Shown here: piece after piece, positions 1 to 59,072 of the stretch
How the letters are laid out: every line of letters begins with the position of its first letter
Numbering within the stretch: the stretch's first letter is position 1
Origin: Candidatus Micrarchaeia archaeon
GTDB taxonomy: Archaea > Micrarchaeota > Micrarchaeia > Anstonellales > Anstonellaceae
Assembly: GCA_041663445.1 (NCBI GenBank)
Contig: JBAYMR010000008.1
Span: 662 to 64,661, forward strand
Length of the DNA stretch: 64,000 bases
Direction: 5' to 3'
The notes under the pieces: generated by a model
What the model saw: the letters and a program-made list of their open reading frames with translations, nothing else
The model's database searches: none
What the model was told of the DNA's origin: nothing
Made by a program: the position numbers and the translations under genes

Positions 1-3000
1 ACGGCATCTATTCCGACGAGTTCAACACAACAGTGAAGAACTGCAACATAAGCAACTTCGCAACTGGCATATACTTCAACGGAGCGACGAACGGCATGAT
101 ACAGAACACGAACACAAGCACAACGAAAACCGCGAGTGGAACAGACGGATATGCGATATATCTTCTCCAATCAAACAACATCACGGCAATGGGCTCAATA
201 GCAAACGCATTAGACGGCATTGGAATTTACGTCTCATCGACAAACAACAGCATAATAAGCGGCATCACCGCCACAATTGCAGGAACAACGAGCGATTACA
301 GAAATCCAATCATCTTGTACTTGACACGCAACAACATAATAGCAAACAATACCTTAAGCAACACGGGAACAATGCATAGCATAGGAGTACTTTCAAGCTC
401 AAATAACACAGTCATAAACAACACCTTTTCAAGCAGAGGCTCGCAGGCATATATAGATTCAGGCGCCTCAGGCAACACCTTCTGCCTGAACAACTTCACC
501 AGCATCGGCAACCCGACAACATACGTCCAAGACCTTAACGGCTCCAACTACTACAACTGCACCTACGCAACCAAGAACCAGGGCAACATGTATGCGAACG
601 TGATGAACGGCAGCATCCAGGTGCTGGGCACGACAGTCTCATCATTCCCAAGCCTTTACATCGGCTCTGCGGGCGCGGGCTTCCCATACAACAATTCGTC
701 TTCCGGAGGCAAGTTCGTCTGCAGCTTCGCAGGATGCGCGGACTTCGCGCCCCTCACTCCAGTCTTCCTTCTGCTCAGCACCCCATCCTCATTGGCAGTT
801 TCATCAGTCACCGACCAGCCGCTAAACTCGCAGCTCGGTGAAATGAGCCTTTCATGGGGCGCGAACAGCAACCCCGCCGGCACTGTCTACGAAGTCAACG
901 AAACAATCTCCGGCCAGACCGTCTCTTCCAGCACAGCGCTCAACTTCACGCACACCGGATTGCTTGACAACACTCAATACTGCTACAAGGTGCGCGCAAC
1001 GCTTGGCGGGCAATATTCCAACTACACATCTGCAATATGCAACATCACGTTCGACAGGACCGCGCCTGCAACTCCCAACCTGCTTCCGGGCAAGCGCGGG
1101 CTAGTCGCCTACTACAAGCTCGACGACGGAAGCGGCACGAGCGCGGCAGACAGCGCGTACAACAACACGGGTGCAGTGTCCGGCGCCACCTGGACAAGCG
1201 GCAGGGTGAACGGCGGGCTTTCATTCAACGCAGTTGACAACTATGCGTATGCAACTGTGCCTGGCATACTGACCGACCCAACAATTTCCTATACTCTTGA
1301 AAGCTGGGTGTCCCCAAGGGTAAATACCAACTCCAGCGAGCACATGGTCGTTGGCAAGGTAGGCAGGCACGGCGGCATACTGTCTACTTCGAGCAGTGGC
1401 AGCACCATTCAGTTCAGATTCCAGTATGTGAACAATGCCAGCGGATGGTTCAGCATCATAAGCAGCGCAGTTCCGCTTGACAGCTGGCATCATGTCGTGG
1501 CAACATACAACGCTACAAACAAGGAAATGAAGCTCTATGTTGACAATGTGCTCGCAGGCAGCGCCAACTTCACCGGAACTCCAACTTCATACGGCTCAAC
1601 ATTGTACCTGGGCGGCTATAGCGGGGCCACCAGCAAATACGGCTTCAACGGCTCGATTGACGAAGTGAAAATCTACAACCGCGCGCTCACCGCAACCGAA
1701 GTAGAGGAAGACTACAACAACTCCGTGGCGTACGTCAGCTTCACGGAAGGCGACAACGGCCTGCAGCTTTACATGCCGTTTGAAGAGGGCGCGGGCGCAA
1801 CGACTGCGGACTGGTCGCCAAACGCGAATGACGGCACGATAACGGGCGCGACTTGGACAAGCGGCAAGTTTGGAAACGCAATGAGTTTTGATGGCAGTGA
1901 CTATATTACTGCACCAAACAGCAGCATCCCGGTTGGAAACGCAATCACAGCCAGTTTCTGGGCATACGGCGCGGATGCCCTGCCTGCCAACACTGCGGCA
2001 ATAACCAGTTCAAACGCAGGCGGATACGTCATAAATGTCCATCTTCCTTGGAGCAATGGATTCGTATATTGGGATTGCGGTAATAATGGGGCAGCCTATG
2101 ACAGAATCTACAAAGCGGCAAATGCTTCCGATTACAAGGGAAGATGGACCTACTGGACTTTCACAAAAGACGCATCCACGGGAGAAATGAAGATATACAT
2201 TGATGGCGTGCTCTGGCACAGTGAAACCGGCAAAACAATGCCAATTCCCGCGGCAACATACCTAAGGATAGGGCAAGCATACCAAGGCAAAATAGACGAA
2301 TTGCGCATCTACAACCGCTCGCTTTCCCAGCACGAAATCATAACCGACATGCAGTCCGGGCTGATAAGCAAGGGGCTTTACAGGAGCAACACGACTACTG
2401 GCATCTACACGCCGGTGAATGGAACTTTCGAAGACTTCTCCTCCGGCAGCGACAGCGCATGGGTCAAAAACGGCGGCACCTGGAATGTAAGCGGCGGAAG
2501 CTACATATCCCCCACTTCTGGCGAAGTGGTGAGCGTAACCGGCGACCCTGCATTGGCCGACTACGTGGTGGAATCCGACTTCGAGATAGTGAGCGGCAAC
2601 CATGCCAGCCTCATCTTCCGCTCCCCCAACATCAACCAGTTCTACCAATATGAAATATACGGCGGCACCAACTCCCTCAATGGCGGCAACATCAACCTCT
2701 ACAAGTATAACTCCGGCTACTCCAACCTTGCAGTTACCGACATTGCCGACCTGAGCTACAATACCTGGTACCATGCCAAGGCAATCGTGAGCGGCAATGT
2801 CATCAAGCTGTATCTCAACGACGTGCTCCTGATGACCTATGCCGACTCGTCCTCGCCCTATCTTGCCGGCAAGGCGGGCGTGGGCACGCACTCGGCTGCC
2901 AGTATCTTCGACAACTTCAAGGTCACCCCGTTCATCTCCTCGCCCAATTACACCGACAATGGCGCGCGCGACGTTTCCGTGCCAATGACGCCAGCGCAGC

Positions 3001-6000
3001 CCACGCTCGCAAGGACATCCACTTCCACGCTCAACCTCACCTGGCTGCCCGTGGACGACACAGGCAGCACCTACTATTACTATGCAAACGCAGTTGACAG
3101 CAATGGCAACGAGGAGGATCTGCTCTACGATGGCGGGTTTGAGAAGGTATCATTGCATGGCTACTGGCTGAATGCTTCCCTGATCCAAGATGGCGCTTCG
3201 TTTGATTCCAACACAACATATTCCGGGGCATACTCCCTCAAGCAAACCGCCACCAACGGCACAAGCTGCGGAAACTGGGCGGACTGCAACAGGTACTGGG
3301 GCTCCAACTTCGGCATCGGCACGGATGTTGCGCCGAACTCGCTCTACCAGCTCAGCTGCATGGCAAAGACGCAGCTTTCCACGGGATTCGCGACGCTCTA
3401 CCTTGAACAGAACGGCACGCGCCTCTACTACGACAACCTCAACGGGACGGCGGACTGGCGCCCCATCCGCGAGGTGTTCAGGACAGGCACTACTGGCACG
3501 GTGCGCCTGCTCGCATACACCATAGGCGGCACCGGCACGGTCAATTGGGACGGCTGCGAGCTCCACATGATAAAGAACCTCACGCTGCTCTCAGGCACGC
3601 GCGACTACTGGATAAACGGCACCAATGCGAACGTGTGGTATGCCGGCACGAGCGTGACAATCTCCAACCTTGCATCCCACACCTGGTACTGTTACGCCGT
3701 CGCCCCGCGCGACATTGCGGGCAACCTGGGCGGTTACTCAGTGCCAGTCTGCAACATGACCATGAACAACCCGCCCAACATGACATCGGTAACGCTGGTG
3801 CCCTCAATCGCATACACTTCCGACCAGCTCAACGCATCTGCAACTGCTACTGACACGAACAACGATACGCTCACCTACACCTATAACTGGTACCTCAACG
3901 GCGCGCCCTATGCCTCGCTGCTCATGCCGTTTGACAACAACGTCTCGGTCAACGACACTGGCGCAATCCAGGATTACTCCGGCAACGGCAACAATGGGAC
4001 GCTCGGCGCAGGGAACGCATCGAGGATGCCCACATGGACAACTGCCGGGAAGATTGGCGGCGCGTATGCATTTGACGGGGCATCGTCATACATTTCGGCG
4101 CCAATATCCTCAGTACCGCAGGTATTCACCATCACTGCATGGATTAAATTGAACCAGCTTGGAAGGGAGCAGCATTTCGCAGAATTCACAGGCACCCAAT
4201 TCTATGTAAGCTCGGGCAACAAACTGGGCACATCTGCATGGAGCAATGCCGTTGGAACAACTTCATTGACTACTGGCACATGGTACTTTGCAACCCTTGT
4301 AAGAAATACGACCAACGTGAGCCTCTACCTCAACGGTGTATATGAAGGCGCTGGCTCGCTCGGGGCAAATGCCACAAGCCCGTTCTCAATAGGCGACTAT
4401 TATGCCCACTCCGGCAACTACAAATTCACCGGCACCATTGACCAGGTCGCAATCTACCCGCGCGCACTTTCTGCGCAGGAAATCGCGGCGCAATACGCGC
4501 TCAACTACAATGTCATGATGCCTGACGAGCTTGAAGGCGGGCAGAGCTGGAAGGTGGAAGCCACGGCATCGGACGGCTTTGACAGCTCCGCGCCCATGAA
4601 CTCCTCTACCTCAACAGTGAAGGCCGGCTGCGGAGTGCTGAAGGTGGCAAACAGGGTGGTCACGCTCGTTGAGAACCTGTCCTCCTCTGGCACATGCTTC
4701 AACGTCACCGCGCAGAACGTGACGATAAATTGCAACGGCTACAGCATAACCGGCACGAACACAACCAACACATCTGGCATCTACAGCAACCAGTTCAATA
4801 CGACAATCAAGAACTGCAACATACGCAGCTTCGGAGCGGGCATCTACTTCAGCGGGGCGACGAACGGGACAATAATCAATGACACTGTGAGCGAAACCCT
4901 GGCATATTCCGCCCCAAACGGGATGGGAATATACCTTGATTCTGGTTCCAACTACAACACAATCACCAACACCGTGAGTTCGGCGATTCGCCCGCTATTC
5001 GTCCGGTTATCTCATCACAATGCGGTTACCAACGTAACAGCAACTTCTGTCACAGACCTTGGAATATACTTTGATAACTCCCAGTACAATACTGTCACCA
5101 ACTCCACAGCAATCACTGGCTCCGGTTACGGCATCCGCTTCTCCTTGAACGCTCATAACAACAATCTCGTTGGCACAACGGCATCATCAAACACATCAAG
5201 CGCCATCTACATAAACGGCGGCTCCAACATCACGATAGACTGCCAGGGCAAGTCAATCATCGGCACGAACGTTTCCAACACCTACGGCGTCTACTCTACA
5301 GAGTTCAACACAACCGTGAAGAACTGTAATATCAGCAACTTTGATGTCGGCATCTACTTCAATAGCGCGGACAATGGCACAATGGAGAACAACACCGTGA
5401 ATGTCGGGCGGAATAATTATGTGGTGCCCCTATATTCATCTGCAATCGCTGTTTACAATGCATCCAATTACAATATGCTGCGCAACAATACAGTGTATTC
5501 CGCTTATGGAGTAGGGATTATCATATCCACCTCAAGCACAGGCAACACAATCATCAATGCAAATGCAACTGCTGTGTCAAGAGGTGCCATATCATTTGAT
5601 AACGGTGTCACTTCAAACAGCATAATCAATTCCACCGGCACTTCAGTTTCCGGCGTTGGTCTTGGTTCCTGGTACAGCTCTAACAACAACGTATCTGGCA
5701 GCACGTTCAGTTCAGGTTCGAGCTACGGAATATATCTTCTTTACAATAGCAATGGCAACATTTTCACAAATAGCACTGCCAAATCCGATTCAAACAATTC
5801 CATCCGCGTTGAGACGACTTCCAACAACAACCAATTCATCGGAACGACAACTGTGACTGGCACAAACGCCGCCAGCACCGCTTACAATATCATCGGCGGC
5901 TCCAATGTTTCCATTGACTGCCAGAGCGACAACATTGACGACCCGAGCCTGAAGCTTTACATGCCGTTCGAGGAGGGGAGCGGAACCGTTGCGCGCGACT

Positions 6001-9000
6001 GGTCAACGTACGGGAACGATGGCGCGCTTACGAGCGGAACATGGGCAAGCGGCAAATATGGCGGCGCGCTTTCGTTCAACGGGAACAACACGGCGGTGAG
6101 CGTCGGGGCGCCAGCAAGCCTGGAAGCGACTGGCGGCGTTACCCTCTCTGCATGGATTTATCCGCTGCCCCGCAATTTCACCAATAAATACTTCGGGCTG
6201 ATGGCGCCCATAATATCAAAGGGCACATGGAGCACAGTCAACTATGAATTGCAGCTATCCGAAGCCAACCAGGTTTCATTCGTGCACAGGAACAACGGGA
6301 ACCTAATATATGAAAACTTCAACCTGCCGTCATCCATCCTGAACGGCTGGCACCATGTGGCTGCGAGCGTGTGCAACAGCGTCGCGTGCAACAACACGGT
6401 GTATTTCTACCTGGATGGCGCCCTGATTGGAGGTGCGAGCGTAGCCGAAGACGGCGGCGTCCTCCCGACTGCAGGCCAGACATTCCTGGTCGGAGGCCTG
6501 GGCGGCTATGGCTTCAACGGCACCATTGACGAGGTGCGCGTGTACGACCGCGCGCTCAGTGCGGACGAGATTGCCAACGTCATGGCCGGAAGCAGGATGC
6601 TCCTTGGCACCAACACGTCCGGCACGTACGGCGTCTACTCCAACCAGCTCAACACAACCGTGAGGAACTGCGCAATCAGGAACTTCGCGTCCGGCATCTA
6701 CCTCTCGGGTGCGGATTACGGCACTATAGAGAACGTGAGCGCGAAGACAACGCGCGCGGGCGGGTATGGCGTTTACCTCAATGGCGCGGACTATGCCTCC
6801 ATAAGGAACAGCAACCTCTCAAGCGCGAATGCATCCGCGCTTTACAGCTACCTCTCCAACTACGGCACGGTGTCCGGAGGCATCTATGGCGCGGCATCTG
6901 ACGGCGTGGGAATCTACAATGCGACGGGCAATTCGATTTCCAACCTCACCATCTCCGCAGGCGGCTATGGCATTTACCTCTCGCCCTCCAGCAACAGGAC
7001 GGCGGCAACAAGCAACATGATAAATTCAACCAGCCATGGCATATTCCTCGACCAGGGCGGCAACAACAACATCTCGTTCAACGCAATCACAAGGTCTGAT
7101 GCAAACAACGGCATCCACCTCTCCTCCAGCGTGAACAACACGATTTCGAGCAATGCCATCACCGTGGCAACCGGCAAGGCAATATACATATACTACCCCG
7201 ACTCCACGGCAGGCAGCAACAACGTCACCAGCAACATTGTGACCGCCACGGGCACAGGCACCGGCATAGCGCTCGTGAACGCAAACACAAACAGCTTCAG
7301 CAACAACTATGCATCCGGCGGCGGCTACGGGATTTCGCTTGGCGGCAGCACGAACAACTCTTTCATAGGGGACACCGGCGTGGCATCCTCAGGCTCAGCC
7401 GTCGGCTTCTTCATCACCAATTCCCCTGCCAACCGCTTTGCCAACATCACGGGCATCGCCTCTTCGGGCACTGCCATGCGCCTGCAGCAGGCGTCGGACA
7501 ACAACGTGATTGAGAACGTCACGACGACCTCGACAGGCTCGGGCACAGGCATTTACGTGGACGGCGTGTCAGGCACCAACATAACCGGCATGAACCTGTC
7601 TGCCCACGGCGGCGACGCGATTTACCTCTCCTCCCTCGCGGTCAACGCGCTTTTGCAGAACGGGTCGGTTTCATCGAATGACGGGAACGGCATGACTGTC
7701 TCGGACGGCGCAACAGGCACCATAATCGCCAATGTGTCCGCATATTCCGGGCAGAAATACGGCATTTTTGTGAAAGGCAGCCCGTCGCACACTTCAATCA
7801 TCGGCGCCAACGCATCAACCGCCAGCGGCGCGGGCATCTACCTTGAGGCCACGCGCGCCAACGTCTCTGGCTCGTCGGGCACGAGCACGGGCACGGGCTA
7901 TGGGCTCAGGGTGCACGGGGGCGAGATGCTGGACATTGCGGACTCCAATTTCACATCTGCGGGAACGAGCGGCACGGGCGCATCCGCCCTATTCGAGGCG
8001 GCTTCAATCAACAACGTTGTCCGTGGCAACACATTCTCTTCGTCATCTTCCGCAGGCGACCTGCTTGTCGTATCCGAGTCGTCGGGCAACACGTTCTACT
8101 GGAATACGTTCGGCGCCACCACCGGATACTATGCAAAGGACGACGACGGGCAGTCCAACCGCTACAACGCCTCGATAGGCGGCAAGGGGGAAGGCAACAG
8201 CTGGTACAACGTGATTGCCAAGGAAGTCTCCATCTGCGGCGCGCTGAGGTCCAACAAGTCCGACTGGGCTTCCTACTACGTCGGCGCAGACTCGGTGGCC
8301 GACCCCAAGCAATACCCGTACAACGAAGTGAACGCGCGCGGCAGGCTTTCAGGCACGATTGTGGATTATGCGCCCATGAGCACGGAGCGCTGCTGGCTCC
8401 CGCAGCCCATACCCCAGAACTACACCGCCCAGGGCTGCGCCCTCAAGTCCTGCAACATTGACGATGACTGCATGAGCGGGAACGCGCCCTATTGCGATGC
8501 CGGCTGCAACCAGCTCACCCATACCTGCTACCCGTGCGTCACCTGCGAAAACGCGTACTGCCTGCCGTCAGGGCAGCCTTGCGGCGCCACGAGGGTGCTT
8601 TCAGGCTGCGGCGTTGCCACATGCAACGCAGGCGTCTGCACGAGCAGCGGCGAAACATGCCCTGGCGCATCCGGGCTCGCATGCTGCCCGTCGTCCTATT
8701 GCTCGGACAGCGGCTCTGCCAGCGTGTGCATTTCCAAGAAACTGGCCGGGGCGCCATGCGCATCCGCCTCGGAATGCGCGCCGTCCGCGCCTTATTGCAC
8801 TGGAACTCCTGCGGTCTGCAGGGCGTGCCTGCCAACCGGGACATACGGCTGCACTTCCGGCTCAGAGTGCTGCGCCAGGGCGGATGGCGCAGCCGGGCTA
8901 TGCAATCTCGCGCAAGGCACGGCTGGCGCCAACACATGCGTTGCGCTGCTGCCTGTAGGCGGCAAGACCTGCTTATCGTCCGATGACTGCGTTTCGGGCT

Positions 9001-23692: not shown

Positions 23693-23803
23693 GCCGAAAT
23701 AACCTTATTAAACAATTGCCGTCTAACTGACGTTGAGGCGCCCTCCGGGCTCCAATGACCTGAAACAAGATTTGCAGATGCCGCTTTGCGGCAATCTGAA
23801 CAC

Positions 23804-23913
23804 GCCGACGTGGCAGAATCCGGTATCGCGCTAGACTCGAGATCTGATGCGGGGTTTTCCACAAGAAATCTAGTGCCCCTCGGGGCTTAGGAGTTCAAAT
23901 CTCCTCGTCGGCG
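23804..23913 (+). tRNA. tRNA-Ser (anticodon CGA) with a 26-nt intron at the canonical 37/38 position
   Basis: Acceptor GCCGACG/CGTCGGC is perfect, with discriminator G. Anticodon stem CTAGA/TCTAG forms only after removing 23842-23867. Loop CT-CGA-GA, anticodon at 23838-23840. Long variable arm TGCCCCTCGGGGCT. T arm AGGAG-TTCAAAT-CTCCT. A T6 run follows. The D stem is imperfect in my fold. Confidence 0.85.
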
Positions 23914-24170
23914 TTTTTTGCTTCCAAAAAAGCCTCCTCGGATTTTGAGCCTCCGGCTCAAAATCTCGCCGGCTTCGCCGTCGATTTCCTCGTCGGTGTT
24001 CATTTTCATTCGCGCCTCCTCAGTTTTGGCGCTTTCGCGCCAAAATCCGTCGTTGTGCTGTGGCACAACTTCGTCTCCTCGTCGGCGTTTTTTGCTTCCA
24101 AAAAAGCCTCCTCGGATTTTGAGCCTCCGGCTCAAAATCTCGCCGGCTTCGCCGTCGATTTCCTCGTCGG
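23900..24170 (+). repeat. Tandem hairpin units bounded by copies of the tRNA-Ser 3' end. 23900-23996 is repeated at 24074-24170.
   Basis: 97/97 identity by my reading. CCTCGTCGG occurs at 23903, 23988, 24077 and 24162. Perfect hairpins at 23914-23931, 23941-23965, 24024-24045 and 24053-24068, plus their copies. Confidence 0.9.
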
Positions 24171-24211
24171 CATTTTTTATTGTATTGGAAATTCTATAAA
24201 TTTCCAATAGC

Positions 24212-24239
24212 AGACAAAATCTGTCCGCAGATTTTGTCT
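24212..24239. repeat. 28-nt perfect hairpin/palindrome AGACAAAATCTG-TCCG-CAGATTTTGTCT, with a paralog at 36725-36752
   Basis: 12-bp stem. The second copy, GGACAAAGTCTG-TCCG-CAGACTTTGTCC, differs at 4 positions that form two compensatory pairs. Confidence 0.85.
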
Positions 24240-24325
24240 TTTCCAAAAATGGCGACCATTTTTCCAGCGGGAAAAATAGGGCGGCGTTTTTTATTATTCC
24301 CTTTCAATACTCCATTGGTGGTTTC

Positions 24326-24739
24326 ATGCAATCCCGCAAGGAAAAAACAGGATACTGGCTCATGCTCGGAAAAGGCGACGACGTGGTCCCCTCCATTTCC
24401 GAATGGGCGCGCAAGAACCGGATTAAGGGCGCGCAGGTGTGGGGCGTGGGCGCGGTAACCGATGCCAAGCTCGCTTGCTACTACCCGCGCTCGAAAAAAT
24501 GGAAAACCATGCCATTTTCAAGTGAAAGCTACGAGCTCCTCTCTTTCATGGGCAACATAAACGAGGACGGGCTCCACGCGCACGTCTGCATATCCGATTC
24601 CGGCTTCAGGGTATTCGGCGGGCACTTGATAAGCGCAAAAATATCCGTCTTCGGCGAATTTTTCATCCTGCCGACCTCCAAGCTTGGGAAAAAATCAGTG
24701 CCAAGCGTCGGGCTAAGAGGCATCAGCCTGGAAAAGTAG
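24326..24739 (+). CDS. PPC/DUF296-domain protein (PD1-like predicted DNA-binding protein)
   Basis: GYWLMLGKGDDVVPSISEWARKNRIKGAQVWGVGAV..YELLSFMGNI...LHAHVCISDSGFRVFGGHL...GEFFI follows the DUF296 pattern I remember. Confidence 0.75.
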   Translation: MQSRKEKTGYWLMLGKGDDVVPSISEWARKNRIKGAQVWGVGAVTDAKLACYYPRSKKWKTMPFSSESYELLSFMGNINEDGLHAHVCISDSGFRVFGGHLISAKISVFGEFFILPTSKLGKKSVPSVGLRGISLEK

Positions 24740-24746
24740 CGCGCGC

Positions 24747-25214
24747 TCACTTTTTTATTTCTCCAAGCACGCCGACGTAGTTCTTGCCCCTTTTCTTCGC
24801 GCATTTCGGGCACGTGGTGTACCACATGTAAAGCTTGCCGATTTCCATTCCCTTTTCCTTTGCGTATTCGTAAAACTCCTTGCACCACTTGCCCGTCTCC
24901 TTGAAGTCGCCCTCGTAGATTTTGCAAAGGTACTTGCCTGTCAGGCGCGCCGACTTTTCGCCCGGCACATCCTTGCCGCACGGCACATAAATGTCCATGT
25001 TGAACATCGAGGTGTGGTCAGAGAGGCACGGGCCATTTCCCCACGCTATGCCTGCCGCCTGCGTTTTCCTGAACAGGCGCGAAATAACGCTGCCAAAGTT
25101 GATGGGCATGTAAAACAGGCAAAGCACGCTTGCCTTGATGAAAGGCTCGTCGTTCCATTCGATAACCTTGCCGTCCCACGGCGCCGGGTCGAACTTCGGG
25201 CAGCATTCTTCCAT
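24747..25214 (-). CDS. Conserved-looking hypothetical protein with Cys motifs at both ends (N-terminal CC, C-terminal CPKC)
   Basis: 155 aa: MEECCPKFDPAPWDGKVIEW...YTTCPKCAKKRGKNYV. GGAGGG lies 5 nt upstream of the ATG. I cannot name the family with confidence. Confidence 0.6.
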   Translation of the reverse strand: MEECCPKFDPAPWDGKVIEWNDEPFIKASVLCLFYMPINFGSVISRLFRKTQAAGIAWGNGPCLSDHTSMFNMDIYVPCGKDVPGEKSARLTGKYLCKIYEGDFKETGKWCKEFYEYAKEKGMEIGKLYMWYTTCPKCAKKRGKNYVGVLGEIKK

Positions 25215-25238
25215 AAAATCCCTCCGTACACAGATTCA

Positions 25239-25402
25239 AGCCCCCGACGGGCGTCAAATGCGGGGCATTTGGCGCGATTTTGGCTCAATGGGCCAAAAGT
25301 CGGGCTGGCTTTCGGATGAAGTGGGAAAGCCCCCGACGAGATTTGGACTTGCGAGCATCAAAACCGAAGGTTTTGGTGCGATTTTGCGCCGAAGGCGCAA
25401 AA
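25239..25402 (-). repeat. Two hairpin units (74 and 89 nt) downstream of tRNA-Thr, each ending in a copy of the tRNA 3' end
   Basis: On the tRNA strand, the tRNA ends ...TTCAAATCCCATCGGGGGCT. Unit 1 ends TCCAAATCTCGTCGGGGGCT (rc of 25328-25347). Unit 2 ends CCCGTCGGGGGCT (rc of 25239-25251). Hairpins at 25382-25402, 25359-25375, 25278-25298 and 25255-25271. Confidence 0.85.
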
Positions 25403-25473
25403 GCCCCCGATGGGATTTGAACCCATGACATCCAGTTTACGAAACTGGCGCTCTACCGCTGAGCTACAGGGGC
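25402..25473 (-). tRNA. tRNA-Thr (anticodon CGU), no intron
   Basis: Reverse complement folds as GCCCCTG-TA-GCTC-AGCGGTA-GAGC-G-CCAGT-TTCGTAA-ACTGG-ATGTC-ATGGG-TTCAAAT-CCCAT-CGGGGGC-T. All stems pair, with one G-U in the acceptor. Confidence 0.9.
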
Positions 25474-25517
25474 GCACTCTCCGTAATTATTTTGAAAGCC
25501 TTTAAAATAGTGCGCCG

Positions 25518-36619: not shown

Positions 36620-36658
36620 CTACCTCCATTTTTTCATTGTATATGTAAATCCTATCGG

Positions 36659-36787
36659 CATCGAGCCGCGGCTCGATGTCTGATGCATTTTGCTTCGCAA
36701 AATGCACATCGGATTTCCATATGCGGACAAAGTCTGTCCGCAGACTTTGTCCTCTGCGGGCGAAAAGGCAGAAGGGCGCAGCCCTTC
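36659..36787. repeat. Four consecutive perfect hairpins/palindromes in the spacer between the aminotransferase gene and the serA-like gene
   Basis: CATCGAGCCG/CGGCTCGATG (36659-36678, a 20-bp palindrome). TGCATTTTGC-TTC-GCAAAATGCA (36684-36706). GGACAAAGTCTG-TCCG-CAGACTTTGTCC (36725-36752). GAAGGGC-GCA-GCCCTTC (36771-36787). Confidence 0.9.
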
Positions 36788-36820
36788 CGGATTTTCATCT
36801 TATCCCGATATTCACTTGCT

Positions 36821-38641: not shown

Positions 38642-40723
<2,082 letters not shown>

Positions 40724-45633: not shown

Positions 45634-48513
45634 ATGCAGGACAAAATCATCATCAGGGGCGCCAGGGAGCACAACCTCAAGAACCTCTCGCTTGAGATTC
45701 CGCGCAATTCCCTCACGGTCATCACCGGCATGTCCGGCTCAGGCAAGTCCACGCTTGCGTTCGACACGCTTTATGCGGAAGGGCAGCGCCGCTACGTGGA
45801 ATCCCTCTCGCCCTACGCGCGCCAGTTCCTTGGTGTCATGGGCAAGCCGGACGTGGATTCCATCGAAGGGCTTTCGCCCGCCATTTCCATCGAGCAGAAG
45901 ACCACCTCGCGCAACCCGCGTTCCACAGTGGGCACCACCACGGAAATTTTCGACTACCTCAGGCTCCTTTACGCGCGCATCGGCGTGCCTTATTGCCCAA
46001 AATGCGGCAAGCTCATCACGTCCCAGACAACCGAGCAGATTGCAAACGCGGTGCTCTCGCAGGGCGGGGCTGAAGGGAAGAACGTCCAGGTGATTTCGCC
46101 CATAGTGCGCGGCAAGAAAGGCACTTACGAAAAATTGTTCGACGACTTCAGGCAGAAAGGCTTTTCGCGCGTGCGCGTCAACGGGAGCCTCATGGAGCTT
46201 GACAAGCCCATCCCGCGGCTCGACAAGGCAAAGCGCCACACCATCGAAGTGGTGGTGGACCGATTCACTGCCACGAACCAGAACAGGCAGAGGCTGCTCG
46301 AGGCGCTGAAAGCAGGCCTGCGCGAAAGCAGCGACGGGCTCGTCATAGTCGCGATAGAGCACGGCAAGGAGCTGCTTTTCTCGCAGAAAAACTCATGCCC
46401 CGACTGCGGCATATCCATCGGCGAGATGCAGCCGCGCATGTTCTCCTTCAACTCGCCCTACGGCGCGTGCGAGGAGTGCAAGGGCATGGGCGTGAAAATA
46501 ATACTCGACGTTGACCTGGTGGTGCCCGACAGGCAAAAGACGCTGCGCGAGGGCGCCATACATCCGTGGCGGAACACCATAATGGGCGGCTACTATTCAT
46601 ACCTGCTGGAAGCCTTGGGCAAGAAGTTCGATTTCTCGCTTGACACGCAGTTCAACGCGCTTTCCAACGAGGCGCGCGATGCCGTGCTTTACGGGTGCGA
46701 CGAGAAGCTGCAGTACCATATCCAGTCAAGGAGCGGCGATTCATCCCACCAGGGCTGGACCCGGTTCGAGGGCGTGATAAACAACCTCGAGCGGCTCTAC
46801 AAGCAGACGCATTCCGAAAGCCGGCGCGCGGAATTGGAAAAGTACATGCGCGAGCTTCCCTGCCCGTCCTGCAAGGGCAAGCGGCTGAAGCCAGAAATGC
46901 TTGCGGTGAAGGTAAACACCCTTTCTGCTTCGCAGAAAGGTGCCCCTTTTTCGCAAGGCGAAAAAGAGGGCGGGAAAGACATCATTGAAGTGACGGATTT
47001 GTCGGTGGAATCCGCCTACGGATTTTTCAGCTCGCTCAAGCTCACCAAGACGGAAGAAACAATCGCGCGCCCGGTTCTGCGCGAGATACAGGCGCGGCTC
47101 GATTTCCTGCTCAACGTTGGCGTGGGCTACCTTTCGCTTTCGCGCGTGACCGGGACGCTGTCCGGCGGCGAGGCGCAGAGGATAAGGCTTGCCACGCAGA
47201 TTGGCGCGAACCTCATGGGCGTGCTTTACGTGCTTGACGAGCCGTCCATCGGTCTCCACCAGCGCGACAACGACAAGCTCATCGCCACCCTCAAGACGCT
47301 CCGCGACCTTGGCAACACCATGGTGGTCGTGGAGCACGACGAGGAAACCATGCGCAGCGCAGACTTCGTGATAGACCTCGGCCCCGGCGCAGGCGTGCAC
47401 GGCGGCAGGATAATGGCAATCGGCACCCCTGAAGAGGTGGAAAAGACGCGCGACTCGCTCACCGGCGCCTACCTGCGCCACGAGCTTGTGATACCCGTTC
47501 CGAAAATCCGCCGCCAGCCCGCCCGCTGGTTCACGCTGAAGGGCGCACGCGAGAACAACCTGAAGAAAATAGACGTGAAATTCCCGATTGGCTGCATGAC
47601 GTGCGTCACCGGCGTGTCGGGCTCGGGCAAGAGCACGCTGGTGAACGAGACGCTCTACCTCGCGCTTCGGAAATATTTCCACCAGTCCAAGGAAGAGCCC
47701 GGCAAATTCGACAGGATAGATGGCGCAGGCGCATTGACGGACGTGATTGAGGTGGACCAGTCGCCCATCGGCAGGACGCCGCGCTCCAACCCGGTCACCT
47801 ACATCGGCGCTTTCACGCCAATCCGCGAACTGTTCGCAGGCGTGCCGGAATCCCGCGCGCGCGGCTACGAGCCGGGGCAGTTCTCATTCAACGTGCAGAA
47901 GGGCAGGTGCCAATCCTGCGAAGGCGACGGCGTGAAGAGGATTGAGATGGCTTTCCTTGCCGACGTCTATGTCACCTGCGAGGAATGCAACGGCAAGCGC
48001 TATGATGCCGAAACTCTGCAGATAAAGTACAAGGGCAAGAACATCCACGACGTGCTTTCCATGAGCGTGGAGGACGCGCTGCAGTTCTTCCAGAACATCC
48101 CTGCCGTGAAAAACAAGCTTGAGACCATGGTGGACGTCGGCTTGGGGTACATTTCATTGGGGCAATCCTCCACCACCCTTTCGGGCGGCGAGGCGCAGAG
48201 GATAAAGCTCGCCACCGAGCTTAGCAGGCGCGAGAACGGCTCCATGCTCTACATACTTGACGAGCCCACCACCGGCTTGCACTTCGCCGACGTTTCCCGG
48301 CTTCTTGCCGTCCTGCAGCGCCTGGCCGACAAGGGCAACACCGTGCTGATAATCGAGCACAACCTCGACGTGATAAAGACCGCGGACTGGGTGATTGACC
48401 TGGGCCCGGAAGGCGGCGACGAGGGCGGGGAGATAGTCGCGCAGGGCACGCCCGAGGACATCGCGCGCAATAAGAACAGCTACACTGGGCAGTACCTCAA
48501 AAAAGTGTTGTAG
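45634..48513 (+). CDS. uvrA: Excinuclease ABC subunit A
   Basis: IRGAREHNLKN, two ABC modules (GMSGSGKST and GVSGSGKST; LSGGEAQRI twice) and zinc-finger Cys pairs. Confidence 0.95.
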   Translation: MQDKIIIRGAREHNLKNLSLEIPRNSLTVITGMSGSGKSTLAFDTLYAEGQRRYVESLSPYARQFLGVMGKPDVDSIEGLSPAISIEQKTTSRNPRSTVGTTTEIFDYLRLLYARIGVPYCPKCGKLITSQTTEQIANAVLSQGGAEGKNVQVISPIVRGKKGTYEKLFDDFRQKGFSRVRVNGSLMELDKPIPRLDKAKRHTIEVVVDRFTATNQNRQRLLEALKAGLRESSDGLVIVAIEHGKELLFSQKNSCPDCGISIGEMQPRMFSFNSPYGACEECKGMGVKIILDVDLVVPDRQKTLREGAIHPWRNTIMGGYYSYLLEALGKKFDFSLDTQFNALSNEARDAVLYGCDEKLQYHIQSRSGDSSHQGWTRFEGVINNLERLYKQTHSESRRAELEKYMRELPCPSCKGKRLKPEMLAVKVNTLSASQKGAPFSQGEKEGGKDIIEVTDLSVESAYGFFSSLKLTKTEETIARPVLREIQARLDFLLNVGVGYLSLSRVTGTLSGGEAQRIRLATQIGANLMGVLYVLDEPSIGLHQRDNDKLIATLKTLRDLGNTMVVVEHDEETMRSADFVIDLGPGAGVHGGRIMAIGTPEEVEKTRDSLTGAYLRHELVIPVPKIRRQPARWFTLKGARENNLKKIDVKFPIGCMTCVTGVSGSGKSTLVNETLYLALRKYFHQSKEEPGKFDRIDGAGALTDVIEVDQSPIGRTPRSNPVTYIGAFTPIRELFAGVPESRARGYEPGQFSFNVQKGRCQSCEGDGVKRIEMAFLADVYVTCEECNGKRYDAETLQIKYKGKNIHDVLSMSVEDALQFFQNIPAVKNKLETMVDVGLGYISLGQSSTTLSGGEAQRIKLATELSRRENGSMLYILDEPTTGLHFADVSRLLAVLQRLADKGNTVLIIEHNLDVIKTADWVIDLGPEGGDEGGEIVAQGTPEDIARNKNSYTGQYLKKVL

Positions 48514-51493: not shown

Positions 51494-51780
51494 CTTGCAG
51501 GAAGGGATATAAAATAGGCTGCTGGCATGCGCGCAGCATTCCTTCTAAGGGTTGATAATAAACGCCCGAGAGGGCGTTTGTTGGAAATCGGGCGCAGCTC
51601 CGACTTGTGCAGCAGCACAAGTGGAGCACTTGTCGGAGCGCCGACAAGTCGCTCGATTAAGAAAATAGAGGGAGATGGTACACCCGAAGGCTCCACCTCG
51701 CCTCCCACACTTCTTGCGAAGCTGGCTAAATCCCCTGCTAAAATTTATATAGGCAGATGGGCGCACGCCGGAAAATTGCG

Positions 51781-58112: not shown

Positions 58113-59072
58113 TCACCTATATCTGTTCCTCAGATTGATATTTCTCAAAGCTTTCTTAATATCATCGATTCTTTTTTTGTGCCGCATATGCGGAAGCAGC
58201 ATGCTAAAGAGTTTCAGCAACTGCTCTTTTCCATTGATTTTTATGTGCCAATAAATGCTTCTCTGTTTGTAACCGCCCGCGACTGGATATTTTTTTCCAG
58301 CTTTATATAAATGAATTGAACTCACGCTGCGTTTCTCAAGCCCCGTTTTAATCAATTCAAGCAATTCGTGGTCATAATTCCCCAACGAATATGCCGCCTT
58401 GCCGTTGCTTATGAACACGCTCCCTTCGGCATCGGTAAAACCTGCAAGGAACGGGGCAAATGCATCCCCTTCCAAAGCCCACGCCACATTATCCCTGCCA
58501 TTCAAGAGAAAGAGAAAGGAATCGTCTAAAAAAGCTTCTATCTGCGTTTTTCCTAATCCGGTTGGCGCACCAACCCAGACGTGCCCATATTTTGAAAATA
58601 ATTTGCGAATTAGGTTTATCTGATCTTTTTTTGTGCTTCCGCAGTCAATCTTAATGGTTTTGCTATTCCGCCCTATCTTTCTTACCCTTAAATCTCCAAT
58701 GGCAAATCCCAGCATATATGCCATTTCAGACCGATCTCCCGAAAAATGGCGTCTGGCGTATTTTATGTGCGCAGTTGAAATGTCTCTTGTCAGCCCCATT
58801 TTTGCAAGTTTTCTATGGATGGTTGACCTTCCACAACCCAGCAAATCGGCTATTTTCCACGTAGACATCTTTTTGCTGATGTACAGCGCCCTAAGCTCAT
58901 CGTCGGTTAAATTCAGTTTGGGGCGCCCGGGCTCGCGTACCCTTATTTTTGCCATTTTTAACCGTTTTAAGACTGTAGCCTTGCAGCACCCGTGCATTTT
59001 TGCGATATCTCCGCTGCTCATTCTCTTGTTGACATACAAGTCTAAGATTTTATTCATCGGTATCCTTTGCAC
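58113..59072 (-). CDS. Free-standing LAGLIDADG-family protein with two N-terminal HTH modules
   Basis: Two LAGLIDADG motifs, LGFAIGDLRV and LAGFTDAEGSV, about 95 aa apart. Two HTH-like repeats (SSGDIAKMHGCCKATVLKRLK; STWKIADLLGCGRSTIHRKL). About 37% GC in sampled lines. It ends 5 nt before the metG start. Confidence 0.85.
   Translation of the reverse strand: MQRIPMNKILDLYVNKRMSSGDIAKMHGCCKATVLKRLKMAKIRVREPGRPKLNLTDDELRALYISKKMSTWKIADLLGCGRSTIHRKLAKMGLTRDISTAHIKYARRHFSGDRSEMAYMLGFAIGDLRVRKIGRNSKTIKIDCGSTKKDQINLIRKLFSKYGHVWVGAPTGLGKTQIEAFLDDSFLFLLNGRDNVAWALEGDAFAPFLAGFTDAEGSVFISNGKAAYSLGNYDHELLELIKTGLEKRSVSSIHLYKAGKKYPVAGGYKQRSIYWHIKINGKEQLLKLFSMLLPHMRHKKRIDDIKKALRNINLRNRYR

Follow-up and report, generated by a model that had tools for sequence, protein, structure and literature searches.

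The stretch analysed here, referred to as the window, comprises 64,000 nt of a metagenome-assembled genome (MAG) of a Candidatus Micrarchaeia archaeon (GCA_041663445.1, JBAYMR010000008.1 positions 662-64,661, forward strand). Its subject is a set of short tandem units that trail a tRNA-Thr gene, each built around two hairpins and closed by a copy of the tRNA 3' end; related units follow a tRNA-Ser gene. The orthologous tRNA-Thr was compared in eight genomes, the window and seven relatives (L003, L004, L005, L006, L007, L141 and L151), using RIO1 protein identity to the window (78-96% across the seven) as the measure of relatedness. All related loci derive from Candidatus Micrarchaeota/Micrarchaeia MAGs.

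tRNA-Thr (anticodon CGU) occupies positions 25402-25473 of the minus strand (ARAGORN; Rfam tRNA model, 72.9 bits). The gene ends in TTCAAATCCCATCGGGGGCT, has the T stem ATGGG/CCCAT, does not encode CCA and is directly followed by a T4-T6 run. A putative archaeal TATA-like box of its transcription unit, ATTTTAAAGG, is located at 25499-25510 (minus), and a homologous TTTTAAAA-CTTGCAAAGTTATTA box precedes tRNA-Thr in L004, L005 and L007. Splitting the downstream sequence at GGGGGCT yields two units on the tRNA strand, the hairpins of which were delineated by a perfect-hairpin scan and by folding. Unit 1 (U1 type, 74 nt, 25328-25401, minus) comprises hairpin A (TTTTGCGCC-TTC-GGCGCAAAA, 25382-25402), whose first T is the discriminator base of tRNA-Thr, the 6-nt linker TCGCAC, hairpin B (CAAAACC-TTC-GGTTTTG, 25359-25375), which is lengthened by GCA/TGC beyond a conserved C.A opposition, a T-arm-like segment and a copy of the tRNA-Thr 3' end, TCCAAATCTCGTCGGGGGCT (25328-25347, direct-repeat family D10). 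This tail matches the tRNA-Thr of the window at 17/20 positions and the CTCGT allele found in relatives at 19/20 (22/24 over the last 24 nt). Unit 2 (U2 type, 89 nt, 25239-25327, minus) begins with a 5' segment followed by GCCAGCCCGAC (25299-25309), the complement of GTCGGGGGC, which reads AGCCCCCG in relatives. It is able to pair with either the preceding or the following copy of the tRNA end, and the minimum free energy fold selects the upstream one. Hairpin A (TTTTGGC-CCATTGA-GCCAAAA, 25278-25298), the linker TCGCGC, hairpin B (CAAATGC-CCC-GCATTTG, 25255-25271, lengthened by GCG/CGC beyond the C.A opposition) and a second, 13-nt tRNA-Thr 3'-end copy, CCCGTCGGGGGCT (25239-25251, direct-repeat family D4), complete the unit. 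About 25 nt further on lie the GGAGGG and ATG of a Bact_hydrolase gene (PF20603, Pfam 1.2e-55; 24747-25214, minus). An earlier note, made from the letters of the window, had described this trailer with its 74-nt and 89-nt units, four hairpins, 17/20 tail and Shine-Dalgarno/ATG, and all of these were recovered at the same positions.

The arrangement is far from what chance would produce. With at most one mismatch, CGTCGGGGGCT is present at three sites in the whole window, all at the tRNA-Thr locus, in phase and on the same strand, compared to chance expectations of 1.6 per 128 kb (both strands) and about 0.002 per 170 nt. Similarly, TTTTG-N6-20-CAAAATC has nine matches in the window versus 0.39 expected, and eight of these, representing five distinct hairpins, belong to the two tRNA loci. 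Four perfect hairpins (stem of at least 7 bp) are packed into 163 nt of the tRNA-Thr units, and the window as a whole holds 53 such hairpins versus 17 in shuffles. Hairpin density reaches 8-18 per 10 kb in the window and in L003-L007 and is at background in L010-L012; the excess is hence lineage-specific. The 164-nt tRNA-Thr trailer folds with z = -4.4, and its antisense strand with z = -4.7.

tRNA-Ser (CGA), which carries a canonical intron, is located at 23804-23913 on the plus strand (Rfam, 41.5 bits; missed by ARAGORN) and converges on tRNA-Thr, with only a PCC-domain gene and the Bact_hydrolase gene in between. Four trailer units follow on the plus strand (23914-23998, 23999-24087, 24088-24172 and a degenerate fourth at 24173-24286; direct-repeat families D1, D8 and D16), ending in the tRNA-Ser tail copies CGTCGGTG, CGTCGGCG, CGTCGGCA and GGGCGGCG, each succeeded by a T run. 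An exact direct repeat of 97 nt with a 174-nt period accounts for the origin of the third unit and demonstrates recent unequal recombination or tandem duplication in this array. Compared to L003, the first tRNA-Ser unit is an 85-nt insertion, placed where the tRNA-Ser end meets the native trailer, and holds a 12-14-nt copy of the tRNA tail, and the native trailer of L003, TTCATTTTCAT, now starts the second unit of the window.

The units at both tRNAs belong to one family. All share the same plan: an optional 5' segment of 22-29 nt, hairpin A of the form TTTTG-stem-loop-stem-CAAAA, a 6-nt linker TCNNNC, hairpin B and a 16-18-nt tail that closes with the 3' strand of the host tRNA. Positions 1-27 of tRNA-Thr unit 1 are identical to positions 31-57 of the first tRNA-Ser unit at 22/27 sites, a compensatory stem change included, and the tRNA-Thr unit of L005 matches the second tRNA-Ser unit at 37/46. 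The earlier note had linked the two loci, and had named a lack of significant similarity in an alignment or shuffling test, combined with a lack of such trailers at other tRNAs, as evidence to the contrary. In that test the similarity is significant, with cores of the tRNA-Thr and tRNA-Ser units aligning at z-scores of 4-11 against dinucleotide shuffles and with co-oriented alignments outscoring reverse-complement ones. The tails, on the other hand, are host-specific, reading CGGGGGCT behind tRNA-Thr and CGTCGGYG behind tRNA-Ser. We note that the tRNA-Ser counterpart of GCCCCC, GCCTCCTC, is homologous to the tRNA-Thr core and not complementary to the tRNA-Ser tail.

Polarity in the family tracks the tRNA, despite the opposite strands of tRNA-Ser and tRNA-Thr in the window. 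Of 55 distinct hairpins in tRNA flanks, 40 open their loop with T and 3 with A when read on the tRNA-sense strand, and the loops are 72% pyrimidine on that strand, bearing out an earlier remark on pyrimidine-rich sense-strand loops at both loci. Six loops are UNCG-type tetraloops (UCCG, UGCG) on the sense strand, with a C-G closing pair in five. In the 225 kb of Micrarchaeia sequence over which both core hairpins were counted, hairpin A (TTTTG..CAAAATC) is found 11 times in tRNA-Ser or tRNA-Thr trailers and three times elsewhere, the latter three without unit context. Hairpin B, with the motif NNN-C-CAAAT..ATTTG-A-N'N'N', combines the conserved C.A opposition with a covarying outer helix of 3 bp and is found in trailers, 5' leaders and tRNA-Ser-tRNA-Thr spacers and almost nowhere else. 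Both core hairpin types are thus nearly confined to the leaders, spacers and trailers of tRNAs, nearly always in tRNA-sense orientation. The view of the units as tRNA trailers only has to be abandoned, as the same hairpins fill 5' leaders and the spacer between tRNA-Ser and tRNA-Thr in relatives. Hairpins take up about 190 nt of the tRNA-Thr leader in L005 and about 110 nt in L151, and the spacer measures 32 nt (L003), 91 nt (L006) or 188 nt (L141). The notion of a strand-specific, tRNA-co-oriented element or RNA family is partly supported, in that the family is real and its polarity is linked to the tRNA. Folding energy has no strand preference. The conserved C.A of hairpin B becomes a G.U wobble on the antisense strand, so that mismatches favour the antisense strand and loops the sense strand; folding energy and G.U asymmetry do not indicate the strand of function.

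Across the eight genomes, presence and absence of the tRNA-Thr units is polymorphic. The window has two, L003 (RIO1 identity 96%) and L141 (91%) none, L004 (91%) three, L151 (90%), L005 (90%) and L006 (89%) one each and L007 (78%) two. The units are consequently dispensable and variable in number (0-3), and two of the nearest genomes have none. Orthologues of unit 1 exist in L004 (65/74 identical to the window) and L007, and unit 2 is homologous to the second and third units of L004, to the second of L007 and to the units of L005, L006 and L151. In L005-L007 tRNA-Thr has a different T stem, ACGAG/CTCGT, and the last 24 nt of L004 unit 1 equal that allele at 24/24 positions. The unit copies hence read CGTCGG because this is the alternative T-stem allele of tRNA-Thr itself, and the suggestion of the earlier note that CGTCGG belongs to the element does not hold. 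By this 24/24 match, the units are older than the current tRNA-Thr allele or were passed between strains.

The surroundings of the units are also rearranged. The cassette of promoter, tRNA-Thr and units (25215-25510 in the window, 9060-9450 in L004) has undergone an inversion in the window as compared to each of the seven relatives, and the units therefore sit between tRNA-Thr and the hydrolase gene in an arrangement specific to the window. More generally, the order of the PCC-domain gene, the hydrolase gene, tRNA-Ser and tRNA-Thr varies among these genomes. L004 has a TATA box between the divergent cassette and the hydrolase gene, whereas no TATA-like box is seen between tRNA-Thr and the hydrolase gene in the window; the loss of the promoter seen in L004 makes it probable that the window gene is co-transcribed with tRNA-Thr and the units. 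Insertions of 1.2-2.3 kb between RIO1 and the distal unit are present in L004 (6790-9066) and L005 (6781-8040) and hold a small membrane open reading frame (ORF), an orphan ORF of 549 amino acids and small ORFs of low GC content. The 3' end of RIO1 is also found there as a degenerate duplicate (L004:7236-7360; L005:about 6830-6860), and these features point to the RIO1 stop codon as a second hotspot of insertion.

Hairpin modules of the lineage are not limited to the units. In L007 unit 1, hairpin A harbours a 54-nt double hairpin inside its loop, and a module nested in the tRNA-Thr trailer unit of L006 is near-identical to window positions 36659-36712 and L004 positions 4766-4814. UvrB (39776-39832) and UvrA (46918-46971) of the window each carry a 54-nt in-frame double-hairpin insert of 18 amino acids, with the empty sites CAC/ATG/AAAAAC and GTGAAC/GGGAAG in L137. 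Apart from the window protein, a single homologue of 82% identity has the UvrB insert, and UvrB proteins of 87-90% identity lack it; the UvrA insert is homologous, in opposite orientation, to the nested module of L007. Finally, an intergenic cluster of four or five perfect hairpins at 36631-36800, between genes for a 2-hydroxyacid dehydrogenase and an aminotransferase, contains the direct repeats CGGATTTCCAT and CGGATTTTCAT 78 nt apart and modules parted by 10-12-nt flank repeats; L137 is about 117 nt shorter at this site. The dispersed modules are thus demonstrably mobile. Two further sites are recorded as observations. Three or four overlapping perfect hairpins (ACTTGTGC..., ACTTGTCGG...) lie in the intergenic region 3' of UvrC (51560-51649), where flanking direct repeats were not detected, and two more distant UvrB homologues (P0033, P0039) have N-terminal insertions of 15-26 amino acids at one site (UvrB alignment columns 38-62), which may be further in-frame repeat insertions.

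Based on these data, we tentatively propose, with slightly less than even confidence, that the tRNA-Thr units are lineage-specific, non-coding double-hairpin elements of about 55-90 nt that reside in tRNA flanks and duplicate the tRNA end on insertion. According to this model, a unit would insert as DNA at the junction of the tRNA 3' end and the T-rich trailer, duplicating the last 11-24 nt of the tRNA gene along with the first T residues. The upstream copy would leave the tRNA intact and the downstream copy would become the tail of the unit. Such duplication would account for homologous cores ending in different, host-matched tails, and would render an insertion that overlaps the tRNA end survivable. 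In agreement, the tRNA-tail copies reach into the T run behind the tRNA (direct-repeat families D8 and D16), so that the repeated segment corresponds to the junction of tRNA 3' end and trailer, about 12-16 nt, or 24 nt plus T residues for unit 1. A similar configuration exists at the 5' end of tRNA-Ser in L005, where a double hairpin is bracketed by GAACACGCAGTCG and GAACACGCCGACG at a distance of 53 nt and a 13-nt duplication spans the junction of leader and tRNA-Ser. The direct repeats of the 36.6-kb cluster show this pattern away from any tRNA. Insertion with target duplication would fit this site, the first tRNA-Ser unit, and the homologous cores with host-specific tails. Arrays would grow through new insertions beside the tRNA and through unequal recombination between the repeated tails, and shrink through the reverse recombination. 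The units would ride in the primary tRNA transcript and be trimmed off by normal end processing, a removal that may explain why tRNA flanks tolerate them; in the window genome they would probably also form the 5' untranslated region of the downstream hydrolase mRNA.

Several points weigh against this proposal. Neither the 64-kb window nor the annotated relatives yielded a transposase, integrase, Cas1 or reverse transcriptase, and the units have no terminal inverted repeats, their ends not being inverted copies. The duplications differ in length (54-nt modules 0-3 nt, most units 11-14 nt, unit 1 24 nt), which agrees poorly with a single classical transposase. For the tRNA-Thr units, no fresh insertion was caught that has both target copies identical and a corresponding empty site. 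The sample of tRNA genes in all Micrarchaeia sequence examined consists of tRNA-Ser and tRNA-Thr; the loci, reached via UvrB and RIO1 homologues, are syntenic and without further tRNA genes. Moreover, the units are conserved in ways that suggest selection rather than passive insertion scars. The terminal CGGGGGCT is present in 11 of 12 tRNA-Thr units while the unit bodies diverge, and in hairpin B the C.A opposition is retained between covarying 3-bp helices. The covariation check on unit alignments proposed in the earlier note gave two compensatory and no disruptive stem changes in hairpins A and B of unit 1, at low power, as 56 of 500 shuffles reach the observed value; it was counted on the three unit 1 orthologues (window, L004, L007), MAFFT misaligning hairpin A in U2-type units.

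The same features speak for the principal rival, namely that the units are co-transcribed modules of the pre-tRNA selected as RNA. The tail mimic and the complementary AGCCCCCG would then represent a processing or folding signal (tRNase Z, RNase P), insulate the tRNA fold, or release a small RNA in the manner of rtT. The near-invariance of the tail, compensatory rather than disruptive changes in the unit 1 stems and the C.A flanked by covarying helices would be expected for such an RNA, as would the strong tRNA-following polarity of the loops, the UNCG-type tetraloops with their C-G closing pairs, the stability of the tRNA-Thr trailer fold and the limitation of the family to tRNA transcription units. 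However, the units are dispensable even between close relatives, the antisense strand folds at least equally well and turns the C.A into G.U, no Rfam family, RtT and tRNA included, matches the units at E up to 10 (window 23750-25500) beyond chance level, and the T4-T6 run at the tRNA end may stop a large part of the transcription. Overall, we regard a functional trailer RNA as rather unlikely.

Alternatively, the units could be degenerate tandem copies of the tRNA, pseudo-tRNAs whose interiors were overwritten by hairpin modules until only the acceptor strands and, in unit 1, the T arm were left. Unit lengths are in line with this, as unit 1 measures 74 nt and the tRNA 72 nt, and the T arm is intact in L004 unit 1. 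U2-type units retain, after an 11-18-nt spacer, an acceptor-5'-like GCCCCCG (GCCCCTG in the tRNA) along with the 3' strand CGGGGGC, and insertion of hairpin modules into existing hairpin loops is known here from L007 unit 1. Nevertheless, the similarity of unit bodies to positions 1-48 of tRNA-Thr is not significant (z at most 1.9), the tRNA covariance model does not match the units at E up to 10, and GCCTCCTC in the tRNA-Ser units is homologous to the tRNA-Thr core without complementing the tRNA-Ser tail. The same duplication pattern is also found at a tRNA 5' end (L005) and at a site devoid of tRNA (36.6 kb). This origin is therefore improbable.

We also consider an as yet unrecognised site-specific insertion system, Cas1/casposase-like, integron-like or based on another single-strand-hairpin recombinase, that adds short structured cassettes at tRNA 3' and 5' ends. 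Such a system could generate a duplication of about 12-14 nt each time and polar arrays resembling those of CRISPR (clustered regularly interspaced short palindromic repeats) or integrons, with the newest unit beside the tRNA, and the same cassettes could also be the source of the non-canonical introns that interrupt the tRNA-Ser T loop in sister genomes (see below). Host-specific tails, polar hairpins with a conserved mismatch and stems that change in sequence but keep their structure would be compatible with such a system, which we nevertheless judge distinctly improbable.

Least likely of all, and very doubtful in our view, is that the units are attL/attR scars of plasmids or viruses that integrated repeatedly via a tRNA-tail attP and were then almost wholly deleted. 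The copy in unit 1 does run from the T loop to the 3' end like a classical tRNA att block, a direct repeat of the tRNA 3' part bounds the insert, and the T-stem alleles of tRNA and unit 1 are swapped between the window/L004 and L007. The locus is moreover a rearrangement hotspot, with the inverted cassette of the window, the insertions on the distal side of the units (L004, L005) and the duplicated RIO1 3' end, and integrase-driven inversions at tRNA genes are known from Thermococcales (PMC5495485). Yet no integrase was found in the window or in neighbouring annotated regions, no viral contigs with the tRNA-Thr tail as attP were found (matches were phage tRNA arrays and one chance coding match), units of 56-128 nt with a conserved architecture and compensatory changes are unlike random deletion remnants, and homologous cores are present at two different tRNAs. 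In viral contigs the unit 1 core gave one chance match and the 36.6-kb module none. A metagenome search for a T loop followed by a TTTTG..CAAAATC hairpin returned, among the matches listed (at least 120), mostly chance matches and bacterial tRNA-Pro genes with a single hairpin and without tail copies.

Further observations concern tRNA-Ser itself. In L004 (10363-10562), L005 (10538-10756) and L006 (about 7085-7226), each time on the minus strand, the gene has not only the canonical intron but also a second, long insertion, which interrupts the T loop behind GGAGTTCAA. The insertions measure about 88, 105 and 71 nt, respectively, and are hairpin-rich with mutually unrelated sequences. Owing to them, these tRNA-Ser genes are missed by both ARAGORN and Rfam, a blind spot of consequence for annotation. 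L004, L005 and L006 have no trailer units at tRNA-Ser, and T-loop insertions are absent from the window and L003. A unit with its spare tRNA 3' end could be the precursor of a T-loop intron, since tRNA, unit and spare 3' end together are one deletion short of such an intron. If the proposal is correct, the units would bear on how non-canonical tRNA introns, as well as structured leaders and trailers, originate. The locus also illustrates genome plasticity in DPANN archaea, as it differs by inversion, by inserted genes and by gained and lost units among genomes with RIO1 78-96% identical to that of the window.

Elsewhere in the window, archaeal neighbour genes encode TFIIB, eIF-1A, eIF-2 beta, RIO1, SerRS and ThrRS. 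Beside the MCM gene, an ORF at 58113-59072 (minus) with a resolvase-type HTH_7 (1e-9) and a weak LAGLIDADG_3 match (1.5e-5) is the sole recombinase- or nuclease-like candidate. The window spans nearly all of the 64.8-kb contig; a giant ORF of 3918 amino acids (33-11789, plus) lies at the left contig edge, and the protein at the right end of the window is an orphan with 2 homologues.

Comparison to known systems places the units among small structured repeats. A CRISPR array can be set aside, given repeats of 11-24 nt in 2-4 copies, no cas genes found and a chance-level CRISPR-DR10 match (E = 0.12) as the sole hit. Casposons offer a precedent for the proposed insertion, as they target tRNA 3' ends, generate target duplications of 14 bp and build tandem arrays with the duplication in common (PMC4779613). 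The units resemble them in the 3'-distal tRNA target, the duplication of similar length (here 11-14 nt) and the arrays parted by the shared duplication; however, casposons are kilobases long with terminal inverted repeats, Cas1 and PolB, while the inserts here measure 40-80 nt without inverted termini, and a Cas1 domain was not found in the window or annotated relatives. The units differ from miniature inverted-repeat transposable elements (MITEs) in lacking terminal inverted repeats; flanking direct repeats are present, with lengths ranging from 0-3 to 24 nt. Double-hairpin or repetitive hairpin-forming mobile elements are known from fungal and sponge mitochondria (PMC2800124). Like these and the Rickettsia palindromic elements, the dispersed 54-nt modules are small mobile hairpins at intergenic, structural RNA and in-frame protein sites, but the mitochondrial and Rickettsia elements belong to other genomes, have other sequences and show neither duplication of a tRNA end nor restriction to tRNA flanks.

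The closest functional analogue is the tyrT operon of E. coli, in which the repeats are 178-bp units with the last 19 nt of tRNA-Tyr. These repeats lie downstream of the tRNA, and one unit gives rise to the processed rtT RNA (Bosl and Kersten 1991, cited by PMC3318445 and bioRxiv 10.1101/2024.07.17.603846). Both systems consist of tandem units directly 3' of a tRNA, within its transcription unit, that each repeat the tRNA 3'-terminal segment. The Micrarchaeia units differ in the absence of an RtT match in the Rfam search, in their heterogeneous length (56-128 nt), in two perfect hairpins, in occurring at two tRNAs and also in leaders and spacers, and in the archaeal host.

Structurally, the closest analogues are the bacterial repetitive extragenic palindromic sequences (REPs) and bacterial interspersed mosaic elements (BIMEs), which are likewise short perfect palindromes (stems of 7-12 bp, loops of 3-5 nt), dense, often paired, mostly intergenic and probably transcribed. 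Hairpin A, with a stem of 7-11 bp starting TTTT/AAAA and a loop of 3-7 nt, has the form of a REP palindrome, which spans 20-40 bp with an 8-9-bp stem opening in A/T pairs and a 4-5-nt loop, and CGTC, TGTC or CCTC stands just 5' of Micrarchaeia trailer hairpins. Such a CGTC-type tag precedes most trailer hairpins and is present overall at 26 of 264 flank sides versus a background of 3.7%. Membership in the CGTC-tagged REPs was nonetheless rejected, as the tag is enriched in tRNA trailers only and is not general to the hairpins. The core hairpins are arranged head-to-tail and confined to tRNA flanks, whereas REPs are dispersed and mostly form head-to-head dimers, and neither tRNA-flank specificity nor duplication of a tRNA tail is a REP feature. 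No REP-associated tyrosine transposase (RAYT) or other Y1 transposase was seen in the window or annotated relatives, and archaeal REPs are not reported in PMC3733652. The same study describes REP dimers in frame inside bacterial uvrA and uvrB (Di Nocera et al. 2013, PMC3733652), to which the 54-nt in-frame hairpin dimers in Micrarchaeia UvrA and UvrB form a striking parallel. A literature search gave no description of palindromic or intergenic repeats in Micrarchaeota. If the proposed insertion with target duplication is correct, the units would represent an apparently undescribed archaeal family of small palindromic elements akin to REPs/BIMEs or MITEs, unusual in keeping to tRNA transcription units, in sharing the orientation of the tRNA and in restoring the tRNA end with each insertion.

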